64,000 bases of DNA from an uncultured cyanobacterium (GTDB taxonomy: Bacteria; Cyanobacteriota; Cyanobacteriia; Cyanobacteriales; CAWCAG01). A model generated the notes under the pieces. It searched no databases and was not told the DNA's origin. It worked only from the letters and a program-made list of their open reading frames with translations. The position numbers and the translations under genes are program-made. Shown here in pieces: positions 27,361-30,697 of the stretch (position 1 is its first letter; each line of letters opens with the position of its first letter). The stretch lies in assembly GCA_963803805.1 (NCBI GenBank), contig CAWDOD010000011.1, positions 64,001 to 128,000 on the forward strand, in the 5' to 3' direction.

Positions 27361-27687
27361 TTAATCATAGGCTTGTTCTTGGTGAGAGCGCCATCTTTGT
27401 GATATTTGCCAGCATTCAGCTACTAATTGATGCCAAGGTACAAGGGTGGCTGTTTCAATGCCAGCTTGGCCGTCAGTTGCCTGTAATAACATCTGAGCAA
27501 CACTAACTTCTTGTTGAGCGCGAGAGAGTCGTGCTAGCAAATTAGTTCGCTCTTCATTGCTAAGAAAAGAAATTTCTTTTGCTTCTAATAAAGATTGCGA
27601 ACGAGAAAACCAATACTGAAAATCTTCGAGTAGAGGTCTAAGGACTGTTTTGAGCAGTTCGTTTTCAGGAAAATGAGAAGGCGACAT
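27361..27687 (-). CDS. DUF2605-type protein
   Basis: LLKTVL.PLLEDFQYWF.RS; PWHQLV.ECW; adjacent to the DUF2973-type gene. Confidence 0.85.
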   Translation of the reverse strand: MSPSHFPENELLKTVLRPLLEDFQYWFSRSQSLLEAKEISFLSNEERTNLLARLSRAQQEVSVAQMLLQATDGQAGIETATLVPWHQLVAECWQISQRWRSHQEQAYD

Positions 27688-27845
27688 TTATATAAAGCAG
27701 CTTACTATCTAAGTCTACATATTAGCGTTATTTACAATCTTTAATATTTATTACTTGGATTTTTGAGGGCAATATGCTAAAAAGCCTCTAAATGTAGGGC
27801 AAGCTTAAAACTTGCCTCACATTTAGAGGCCTTTTGTGCAACAAT

Positions 27846-28043
27846 TTAATTATTATTATTGTTGCCGTTGTTATCATTGTTATCATCACCGGCGGCATTA
27901 CCTGTACCAGTTTTTCTTCCTCCACCGTTACCGTAACGCTTACCTCCTCGGGTAAAACGTTTGTTGCGATTTTTCCTAAATTTGCGAGCATAGGCTTTAT
28001 TGCGCTCAGCTTTTTCTTTTTTTAGGTTTCTACGTTTTGACAT
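27846..28043 (-). CDS. Small, very basic protein with a Gly/Asn/Asp tail
   Basis: GAGG RBS before ATG; MSKRRNLKKEKAERNKAYARKFRK. Confidence 0.7.
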   Translation of the reverse strand: MSKRRNLKKEKAERNKAYARKFRKNRNKRFTRGGKRYGNGGGRKTGTGNAAGDDNNDNNGNNNNN

Positions 28044-28064
28044 TATGACCTCATTGACACGACA

Positions 28065-28119
28065 AAGCGCCTTCAGCTTTGGCTCGTTAGATTAACTCCC
28101 AAGCGTTTCTGAGGCGCTT
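28065..28119 (-). promoter_or_regulatory. Structured 5' leader stem of the basic-protein gene
   Basis: Minus strand AAGCGCCT-CAG ... CTG-A-AGGCGCTT (11 bp, one bulge). Confidence 0.5.
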
Positions 28120-28199
28120 ATTGAATTTAGACTTTATTACTATTAAATTGCTGTTGTGGTCTAAAAACTCTGGGGTATTTCTAAATAAATCTTCAACTC

Positions 28200-28515
28200 G
28201 CGACATACTCCTACACTAGCTTTTTAAGTATAGTGTAGGCTTCTTACCAACTCCACCCAGCAGTATTTCATGATTGAGATACTCCACGAACGGATGCTCG
28301 ATAAGCTTTATTAACGACACGTAATGCCCTACCGCACCGGATTTAAAATCAAAGGCTTATTGGCTTATGGGCGTTAGTGAACTCAAACCCGTTTCTCTAT
28401 TCTACGGTATGTTTGATGTACTTTGAGGGTTTTTTATAAGATATCTACGCCCAACTAGCCTATCCACCCCGACACCAATATCAAAAGATTACGATGCGGG
28501 GCTTCCGGCGTTAAG
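28200..28515 (-). mobile_element. Non-autonomous IS200/IS605-family element (both ends plus tnpB 3' tail; candidate omega/reRNA)
   Basis: Left end GAAGCCCCGC..GTCGGGG hairpin; right end GAAGCCTACACTA..TAGTGTAGGAGTATGTCGC; internal GCG GTA GGG CAT (AVGH), resembling the tnpB C-terminal tail. Confidence 0.7.
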
Positions 28516-28794
28516 CTAAAACCTATTGTTTTTTCTGCGGTTGTCTCTATCTTCCCTCGGTCTGGCTTTGTTGACACGTAACTGTCTATTCATCCATTCT
28601 GCCCCATCAAGTTCGGCTATGGCTTTGTCTTCTTGGCTTTCTTCTTCCATTTCCACAAAAGCAAAACCACGAACTCGGCCTGTTTCCCTATCTTTTGGTA
28701 TGACAACGCTCTTAACAGAACCGTATTCTGCAAAAACTTCGGACAGGTCTTCTTCTTTGACCTGGTAAGATAGGTTGCCTATGTAAATTGTCAC
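28516..28794 (-). CDS. rbp: RRM RNA-binding protein (Rbp family)
   Basis: IYIGNL (RNP2), RGFAFVEM (RNP1), LRVNKA. Confidence 0.95.
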   Translation of the reverse strand: MTIYIGNLSYQVKEEDLSEVFAEYGSVKSVVIPKDRETGRVRGFAFVEMEEESQEDKAIAELDGAEWMNRQLRVNKARPREDRDNRRKNNRF

Positions 28795-29027
28795 TAATGC
28801 TTCTCCGTCTGAAATACTGGCTTAGATAAAGGTCGGCTGGAGATAATTTAGAAACTCTAATTAGGCTAGCCCGTTATAATTTCTAGAAAAGTCTCTTGGC
28901 TATATAGGGTTTCCCAACCGCTAGCTAGTCCGAACTAAAATCTATTTTCGTACTAACTATAGCATATTTAGGCTAGTGTAAAACTGAGTTGAAAATCGGT
29001 TCGAGAATAGAGTTTCTAAGGAAATTT

Positions 29028-29378
29028 TCATCCCCCGCTAATCTTTGCTTTATAGCCTAATTTTTGCAAAAACTGGCAAATTTTTTCTTTATGGTCGCCT
29101 TGAATTTCTAAAGTATTATCCTTGAAGGTTCCACCGCTACCACAATGACTTTTTAATTGCTTGAGTAAAGTAGTTAGGGTTTCTGATGTACTTTGGAATC
29201 CCTCAATAATAGTGACTGTTTTACCTTTACGCCCTTTGCGAGTAGATTGTACCCGCAAGTTCTGTTGATTAGGAGGTAAATCTGGTTTACCCCGTTCTAA
29301 GGCTGCTGGCTGGCTAGCTTCACCAAATTCTTGGTAAGCAATTCGTTGGTTAGAAGAAGATTTACGCTTTTTGCTCAT
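29028..29378 (-). CDS. Translation initiation factor SUI1 family (YciH-like)
   Basis: RKGRKGKTVT, LK..CGSGGT.KD..LEIQGDH. Confidence 0.93.
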   Translation of the reverse strand: MSKKRKSSSNQRIAYQEFGEASQPAALERGKPDLPPNQQNLRVQSTRKGRKGKTVTIIEGFQSTSETLTTLLKQLKSHCGSGGTFKDNTLEIQGDHKEKICQFLQKLGYKAKISGG

Positions 29379-29455
29379 ATAAGGTTGGTTGGTTATTCCC
29401 GCTTCGCCAATAGATTTATAATTAAACCTGTCGTAATAGTATTTTGCCTTAAATT

Positions 29456-30697
29456 GTGAGCGCCACTACCAACACTGCGGTTTATACCGATTCCCAACAA
29501 CCCGATGCTTTAGGAAGATTTGGTCGTTTTGGAGGTAAGTATGTACCGGAAACCTTAATGCCGGCTTTAAGCGAGTTAGAATCTGCTTATAGTCAATATC
29601 GCCAAGATCCTGACTTTATGAAGGAATTACAGGGGCTACTGCGAGATTATGTCGGTAGACCTAGCCCTTTATATTTTGCCCAACGCTTGAGCGATCGCTA
29701 CGCTAAATCTGATGCTACAGGGCCGCAAATTTATCTTAAAAGAGAAGATTTAAACCATACCGGGGCCCATAAAATTAATAATGCTTTAGCTCAAGTTTTG
29801 TTAGCTAAGCGTATGGGTAAGCAGCGTATTATAGCTGAAACTGGTGCAGGGCAGCATGGCGTGGCTACAGCAACAGTCTGCGCCCGCTTTGGCTTGGAAT
29901 GTATTATTTATATGGGGGAACAGGATATGGAACGCCAAGCCCTCAATGTTTTTCGGATGCGACTGCTAGATGCGAAGGTGCAACCTGTAACCGCAGGTAC
30001 TGGTACTCTCAAAGATGCTACTTCTGAAGCGATTCGGGATTGGGTAACCAATGTGGAGAATACCCATTATATTCTCGGCTCTGTGGCTGGACCTCATCCT
30101 TATCCGAGAATGGTTAGGGATTTTCATGCTGTTATTGGTCAAGAGACTCGCCAGCAATGTCAGGAAAAGTGGGGGGGGCTACCTGATATTCTCATGGCTT
30201 GTGTGGGCGGAGGTTCTAATGCCATGGGCTTATTTGCTGAGTTTGTTAAAGATACCTCTGTGAGGATGATCGGTGTCGAAGCAGCAGGAGAAGGTACGGA
30301 AACAGAGAAACACGCTGCTACTCTCACCAAAGGTCGTCCAGGGGTGTTACACGGAGCCATGAGCTATTTATTACAGGATACTGAAGGTCAAGTCATTGAA
30401 GCTCATTCTATTAGTGCCGGATTGGATTACCCTGGAGTGGGACCAGAACATAGTTATCTCAAGGATACCCAACGGGCAGAATACTATAGCGTTACTGATG
30501 CTGAAGCAGTGGATGCTTTTGTGCGAGTATCAAAGTTGGAAGGAATTATCCCTGCTTTAGAAACTGCCCATGCTTTTGCTTATTTAGAAGCTCTTTGCCC
30601 CCAATTACCAGGCAGTCCTAAAATCGTTATTAATTGTTCGGGGCGAGGTGATAAGGATGTGAGGACGGTGGCGAAGTATTTAGGAAAGGAATGGTAA
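29456..30697 (+). CDS. trpB: Tryptophan synthase beta chain
   Basis: [49 protein letters not shown]. Confidence 0.98.

Follow-up and report, generated by a model that had tools for sequence, protein, structure and literature searches.

A 316-bp stretch that encodes no protein, set between two genes of an uncultured cyanobacterium, raises the question of whether it is a working guide-RNA locus, a transposon relic or a piece of regulatory DNA. An initial annotation had read it as a protein-less IS200/IS605 mini-element whose RNA, with a guide taken from the flanking DNA, could be loaded in trans by a TnpB or TldR encoded elsewhere. All positions given here refer to the window, the whole 64-kb stretch of DNA that was analysed; the genome under study (G000) is a 5.3-Mb assembly, 97.4% complete, in 11 contigs. 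Upstream of the stretch lies rbp, the gene for an RRM-type RNA-binding protein (28794 to 28516, minus strand; PF00076, E 2.8e-22), and downstream lies a very basic 65-aa ORF (28043..27846, minus strand), which is conserved in a sister species of the same genus (G001) and has no Pfam match. The small ORF has a lysine/arginine-rich N-terminal half and an Asn/Asp-rich tail.

In the cycle described in PMC10055086, a Y1 transposase excises an element scarlessly and the guide of the omega-RNA is the flank beyond the right end; TnpB then cleaves the resealed empty site beside the target motif, and the element is put back by homologous repair. Derivatives of IS200/IS605 elements that contain no ORF are termed palindrome-associated transposable elements (PATEs), with PATE-like examples reported from Geobacillus stearothermophilus and for Clostridioides IStrons (PMC10055086; bioRxiv 10.1101/2023.11.20.567912). 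PATEs are described as often encoding omega-RNAs that need a TnpB supplied in trans by other elements (PMC10055086), and standalone omega-RNAs are presented in PMC10691335, with reference to the 2021 OMEGA paper, as mobilised, effector-less RNAs which work in trans with compatible effectors.

A search of the closest two genomes with positions 28900..27780 as the query recovered both flanks in G001 at ~90% identity, the two blocks abutting one another. By MAFFT alignment exactly 28515..28200 (316 bp, read on the minus strand) is missing from the orthologous site of G001, so the boundaries of this ORF-less insertion are not arbitrary, and those drawn in the initial annotation are the true ones. 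The empty site in G001 reads ...TTCTAG/GAGTTGAAGATTTATTTAG (in a longer reading ...CGGTTCTAG/GAGTTGAAGATTTATTTAG; a slash marks the junction), and the occupied site in the window reads ...AGGTTTTAG/CTTAACGCC...GTATGTCGC/GAGTTGAAG. There is no target duplication, with zero repeated bases at either junction. The insertion lies directly 3' of TTTAG (28520..28516, minus strand), a motif which takes in the rbp stop codon TAG (28518..28516), and TTAG precedes the junction in 25 of 25 cases, a count that comprises the recognisable left ends of relatives and of the present copy. The element contains no ORF longer than 40 aa, the longest ORFs overlapping it being 34–40 aa, one of which is the remnant frame of tnpB. 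Chance or artefact as the source of the 316-bp feature is ruled out by the empty site together with the score of the RNA model described below. The parts of the locus are as follows.

28200..28515, minus strand: the whole mini-element; missing at the orthologous site in G001, no target duplication, no ORF >40 aa.
28516..28520, minus strand: target or transposon-adjacent motif TTTAG, including the rbp stop TAG; 25 left-end junctions follow TTAG.
28442..28515, minus strand: left end CTTAACGCCGGAAGCC with subterminal imperfect hairpin; 75–87% identity to left ends of full-length tnpB elements.
28391..28435, minus strand: promoter-like block with the −10-like hexamer TAGAAT (28404..28399); recognised from its sequence and a 94% identical stretch in G301, activity predicted.
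28336..28390, minus strand: leader, from the −10 to the scaffold; small GGG...CCC stem, junction ...TCCGGT directly before GCGG.
28200..28335, minus strand: omega-RNA scaffold, made up of the tnpB 3' remnant and the right end; covariance model R1, positions 1–111, 101.5 bits.
28216..28335, minus strand: remnant of the tnpB reading frame (AVGHYVSLIKLIEHPFVEYLNHEILLGGVGKKPTLYLKS, then a stop); collinear with full-length TnpB C-termini.
28210..28239, minus strand: right-end hairpin CCTACACTA-N12-TAGTGTAGG, with GAAGCC before it; supported by folding, and the stem covaries in the family.
28200..28203, minus strand: terminal tetranucleotide TCGC (TCAC in the family, in 37/37 and 31/31 relatives).
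28184..28199, minus strand: would-be 16-nt guide GAGTTGAAGATTTATT, native flank; matches the empty site in G001, guide role suggested by its position only.

Both ends of the element are homologous to the ends of elements with a full-length tnpB. At the left, GAAGCC (28505..28500, minus strand) is followed by the imperfect hairpin CCCCGCA...TG(T)CGGGG (28501..28457, with one bulged T), which folds as DNA at −10.4 kcal/mol (z −1.7). In 25 other genomes of 400 there are sequences with 75–87% identity to the first 58–74 nt of the element, and these homologues stand directly upstream of full-length tnpB genes in L020 (433 aa), L119 (416 aa), L115 (441 aa) and L116 (423 aa), the L020 protein having HTH, OrfB_IS605 and TNB domains. 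Sequences similar to the right half (element positions ~165–316) occur in 9 of 61 relatives and, across the order, in 43 of 401 genomes (G000 itself being counted in both), with no non-self match extending past position 314 of 316. This match is often the 3' end of a full-length tnpB, encoding 408–478 aa in L021, L034, L031, L025, L037 and L036, and 417–428 aa in L074 and L059. The C-termini of full-length TnpB proteins (...NRAVGHSVLKAHRVSEAIAGVGEKPTLY...) are collinear with the frame remnant in the element, AVGHYVSLIKL...GGVGKKPTLYLKS and a stop, whose DNA opens with GCGGTAGGGCAT at 28335 on the minus strand.

From left to right the element thus carries a hairpin-bearing left end, a block resembling a promoter, a short leader, the final 39 codons of tnpB and a right end. 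The right-end hairpin (28239..28210) is well formed as DNA (z −3.0; 2 of 200 shuffles were as good) and is followed by the terminus AGTATGTCGC (28209..28200, minus strand). In this terminus the final tetranucleotide is TCGC, against TCAC in all 37 right ends of relatives found with a pattern that allowed either base, and in all 31 rows of the alignment from which the RNA model was built. The initial annotation was accordingly sound in its description: the rbp stop, GAAGCC with its hairpin, TAGAAT, GCGGTAGGGCAT, the CCTACACTA/TAGTGTAGG hairpin and AGTATGTCGC are all present on the minus strand, the left end, the promoter-like block and the complete omega-RNA-sized portion from the tnpB 3' end to the right end are all retained in an element that encodes no protein, and TCGC is indeed the exception. 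By its sequence, the mini-element is a PATE-type member of the IS200/IS605 family, derived from tnpB-only elements and carrying a standalone omega-RNA module.

As a separate observation, the two ends have different nearest relatives. The left end (28442–28515) is closest to elements with the '...NSRIGCEA...' subtype of TnpB C-terminus and scaffold (L020, L119), and the right half (28200–28335) belongs to the '...GVGKKPTL...' subtype; the ends of the element may come from two sublineages.

The scaffold was modelled from relatives only. Alignment A2 holds 31 right-end regions, with the present copy left out, and is the basis of covariance model R1. Its RNAalifold consensus structure has six helices with 25 pairs, of which 15 change on both sides. 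Paired cells amount to 97.4%, compared with 41.9–45.3% when the partners are slid by 1–3 columns, and none of 500 shuffles reached the observed covariation score; relatedness among the A2 rows inflates the covariation figures and leaves the slid controls unaffected. R1 matched the present copy from end to end (28335..28200, 101.5 bits, E 1.9e-24), the sole match in the 64-kb window, and the match ends at 28200, which is the insertion boundary. Across 75 loci R1 gave 76 matches of 19–135 bits, and among copies with an intact tnpB the scores were 115.3 (L034), 113.3 (L025), 103.5 (L074), 94.7 (L021), 94.2 (L031), 77.7 (L059), 76.9 (L020) and 70.1 (L036). The 136-nt RNA by itself folds at −38 kcal/mol (z −1.7). 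Rfam (E up to 10, positions 27500–29500) gave eight weak matches, all below the gathering scores and none inside the element.

Judged by its model score, which is mid-range, the scaffold is not decayed beyond the range of its family; decay had been named in the initial annotation as grounds against a guide-RNA role, and the score lies within the 70–135 bits of copies with an intact tnpB. In the present copy 24 of the 25 pairs are standard. The exception is a C to A change at a family-invariant position, which turns a G-C pair (31/31 rows) into G-A and breaks one pair of the first hairpin. Together with the change from TCAC to TCGC this makes two substitutions at family-invariant positions, which fit relaxed constraint. 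The good preservation of the rest would be accounted for either by a recent insertion or by continuing constraint.

Related cyanobacteria have ORF-less versions of ~300 bp in multiple copies, with the same junction. When a 601-nt sequence that includes one mini-element served as the query, it recovered 57 matches in G355 and 82 in G200 (E up to 1e-6), many of which span the whole ~310 bp in alignment A1. Twelve mini-elements were examined, namely the present one, two from G001, one from G002 and others from four further genera, and in 12/12 the motif (T/C/G)CCGG(T/C) stands immediately before GCGG, at a point where full-length elements have coding sequence. The junction shared by all of these points to one ancestral deletion. 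A hexamer that matches TATAAT at five or more of its six positions lies 69–91 nt upstream of the scaffold in 10 of the 12, and full-length elements have a similar −10 shortly before the start of tnpB, so it is reasonable to suppose, on a predicted promoter activity, that the deletion joined the element promoter to the RNA scaffold.

The two congeneric genomes differ in the mini-elements they carry. For one of those in G001 (L027) the corresponding site in G000 is cleanly empty (9 nt where G001 has 294), and the G000 copy is missing from G001, which argues that mini-elements have been inserted or precisely excised since the two species diverged. A second G001 mini-element (L013) lacks a clean empty counterpart, for G000 has unrelated sequence there, 208 nt against 380 nt in G001. 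At E up to 0.001, model R1 has seven matches in G001, 12 in G002 and nine in G006, all sister genomes, and the left end of the full-length G001 element L021 matches those of the mini-elements in the same genome. Topic searches of the literature, which covered main articles and used no sequence motifs, found no published description of this cyanobacterial mini-element family.

Many family members (L052, L076, L079, L082, L059, L100) also carry a ~25-nt insert that begins TTCGCG(N)AGCG and has a small GC hairpin, and which sits in the scaffold loop, in the loop of the right-end hairpin or in the left half, and which is missing entirely from other members. A diverged version of it lies at 28262–28292 (minus strand) in the window. 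The insert has the look of a very small mobile repeat, nested in the elements and tolerated by the omega-RNA.

The partners that the mini-element would need were sought in G000. A PF07282 profile search of the assembly found one TnpB only, a protein of 398 aa encoded by an open frame on a different contig, with OrfB_IS605 and TNB domains. The 433-aa cognate-type TnpB of L020, used as a query, found this resident gene alone, at 45% identity over residues 189–407, and the right end of the resident tnpB, ...GAATCCCCTCGCCTTTAGGCAGGGGAGTGTCAATC, is of a different type from that of the mini-element. No cognate TnpB was found in the G000 assembly (the 97.4% of the genome held in its 11 contigs, as distinct from unassembled DNA or a lost plasmid). 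Nor is there a second copy of the mini-element in G000: of 12 rows at E up to 10, the 11 others are 15–23 nt long with E of at least 1.6. R1 had no further match in this genome beyond a 15.3-bit one at E about 2. The initial annotation had looked to full-length tnpB elements with the same ends and to copies of the same size, and had taken the lack of a cognate tnpB element as telling against a guide-RNA locus; both kinds exist in related genomes, and neither a cognate tnpB nor a second ORF-less copy was found in the G000 assembly.

We consider it most probable (about 0.7) that the locus is a stranded, single-copy, non-autonomous PATE-type relic of the IS200/IS605 family. On this reading one ancestral deletion would have removed nearly all of tnpB in the cyanobacterial ~300-bp lineage, so that the left end, the promoter block of tnpB and a short leader came to adjoin the final ~40 codons of the gene and the right end. 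The present copy would have entered without a scar directly 3' of TTTAG once the two sister species had separated, or the sister would have lost it through precise excision. Given a matching TnpB, the RNA of the element, with the adjacent flank as its guide, would direct a cut of the vacated site TTTAG+GAGTTGAAG..., and homologous repair of the cut site would restore the element. We rate the stranded relic likeliest because no cognate TnpB, without which this scheme cannot run, was found in the assembly, the RNA module being most likely partnerless in G000, and because TCGC in place of TCAC probably also impairs cleavage of the right end by the Y1 transposase. The latter expectation comes from the biochemistry of IS608, where recognition of the terminal tetranucleotide works through base contacts to a guide segment next to the hairpin.

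The element is oriented like rbp and the gene for the small basic protein downstream, and since it lies between them its RNA is probably made as part of the transcript that runs from rbp to the small gene, with or without activity of its own promoter. Between the two genes no terminator-like site was called on the minus strand (both sites that were found are on the plus strand), and a long perfect hairpin with a T-run, a strong site, occurs only after the small gene (27783..27831); the 65-aa gene is probably co-transcribed with rbp. A scan for consensus promoters gave four promoter-like sites against 2.7 expected, none of them inside the element, TAGAAT being uncalled because it has no good −35.

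This arrangement lends itself to a reading in which the insertion has been co-opted in cis, its promoter block driving the 65-aa gene or its structured RNA modulating that gene or the stability of the rbp mRNA. Besides the shared orientation and the position of the terminator-like hairpin, it can draw on the promoter-like block itself, a 34-nt part of which recurs at 94% identity in G301, beside a degenerate left-end fragment (L112:1501-1662). We consider co-option unlikely, however, as the sister species G001 manages without the element, as a search of metagenome contigs and genome contigs for the 24-nt junction of right end and flank found no match and so gave no sign of conservation, and as the promoter, uncalled by the consensus scan, is a predicted one. 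The G301 copy of the 34-nt block lies ~55 nt upstream of a tRNA-His gene, and a similar block in G380 (L127), CCGTAGAATAGAGA, closely precedes a cysteine-synthase-like ORF; such a block may be portable between sites.

That the locus is instead a live mini-transposon, which a Y1 transposase could mobilise in trans and which is for the present between hosts of its TnpB, we hold to be quite unlikely. Both end hairpins are intact, the difference in mini-elements between the two congeneric genomes implies recent movement or excision, and G000 encodes an IS200-like Y1 transposase of 150 aa, the best of three Y1_Tnp matches (91.9, 31.2 and 14.3 bits) and an enzyme whose specificity is unreadable from sequence. 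Yet the terminus carries TCGC where TCAC is invariant among the 37 relatives, the element is present as a single copy, and no GAAGCC-hairpin ends were recognised around the best Y1 gene. Upstream of that gene a ~58-nt direct repeat occurs twice (L106:1885-1942 and L106:2093-2150, on contig C6 of G000), and the ends of this 150-aa Y1 element are unlike those of the mini-element.

A broader reading would treat the ~300-bp cyanobacterial mini-elements as a guide-RNA-only selfish lineage. It would have arisen when a single ancient deletion (...TCCGGY/GCGG...) placed the omega-RNA behind the tnpB promoter and a leader hairpin, and would since have reached several genera with transposase and TnpB both borrowed in trans. 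The present copy would lie in the rbp unit of a genome that lost its cognate TnpB and would remain expressed, serving either the distantly related resident TnpB or, as a structured RNA or promoter module, the adjacent small gene. Taken as a whole, we regard this chain of events as very doubtful.

The working trans-acting guide-RNA locus of the initial annotation, with the RNA loaded by the resident 398-aa TnpB and directed to copies of the flank next to TTAG, fares worst and is in our view highly improbable. It is true that the scaffold is intact, that the resident protein has the expected OrfB_IS605 and TNB domains in an open frame, that its RNA region shares the general layout and helix order of the family as well as the GGGCAU loop of the first hairpin, and that standalone omega-RNAs acting in trans are documented (PMC10691335). 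Against this, the resident protein is only 45% identical to the cognate type, and over part of its length, and its RNA region, which aligns collinearly to R1 with filters off, scores 6.6 bits (E 0.2) as compared with 101.5 bits for the mini-element. A TldR does not offer a way out, since no TldR-like gene (a nuclease-dead TnpB homologue) was found next to the mini-element or elsewhere in G000, and TldR-type domestication is ruled out by the lack of a second TnpB homologue in G000.

The would-be guide does not point to a target either. GAGTTGAAGATTTATT is just native flank, the same bases standing directly after the rbp stop at the empty site in G001, and of 18 sites elsewhere in G000 with up to two mismatches none is preceded by TTAG, so that the idea of a guide with a target beyond its own flank found no support in this genome. 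One other exact copy of the 16-mer exists in G000 (C9:80240-80255, also L003:1501-1516, minus strand), inside a long open frame, where it is preceded by GCATG, not TTAG. With ~0.009 such matches expected from base composition, this copy would be an unlikely coincidence, and we do not treat it as a target. A 35-nt flank query against phage records gave short matches only (E of at least 0.1), to phages of unrelated hosts, which we reject as chance-level.

Set against known systems, the stranded relic involves no new mechanism, as PATEs with omega-RNAs and standalone trans-acting omega-RNAs are both already known. The mini-element resembles PATEs in having no ORF, in its tnpB-homologous ends with subterminal hairpins, in its scarless insertion beside a fixed short motif, and in carrying an omega-RNA region that would need TnpB in trans. 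It differs from them in being single-copy in a genome without a matching tnpB and in its mutated terminal cleavage motif, and its cyanobacterial lineage differs in sharing one deletion junction and a promoter-like block among all the mini-elements examined. Like the standalone omega-RNAs of OMEGA systems presented in PMC10691335, it is an effector-less locus whose scaffold ends at the transposon end and whose guide would come from the flank, but a compatible effector was not found in G000. With cyanobacterial TnpB-only elements (L020, L021, L034, L119), of the IS1341 group as this subgroup is named in the ISfinder-based table of PMC3542288, it has in common the target TTAG, the GAAGCC-plus-hairpin ends, the terminal ...GGGAGTATGTCAC and the same covarying RNA scaffold; unlike them it lacks ~1.2 kb of tnpB and hence encodes no protein. 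The guide RNAs of TldR, as described in PMC10705468, likewise have a TnpB-derived scaffold that could be put to uses beyond transposon homing, whereas G000 has no nuclease-dead TnpB homologue and the guide, among TTAG-preceded sites, matches its own flank only.

The locus provides a cleanly delimited, protein-less IS200/IS605 mini-element with a complete omega-RNA module, for which both an occupied and an empty site are available, and its relatives provide an RNA model, supported by covariation, for a widespread cyanobacterial TnpB family that has the target motif TTAG. If the preferred reading of a stranded relic is correct, guide-RNA modules can outlive their nuclease in a genome, a point relevant to the annotation of 'orphan' structured intergenic RNAs and to the mining of TnpB/omega-RNA pairs.
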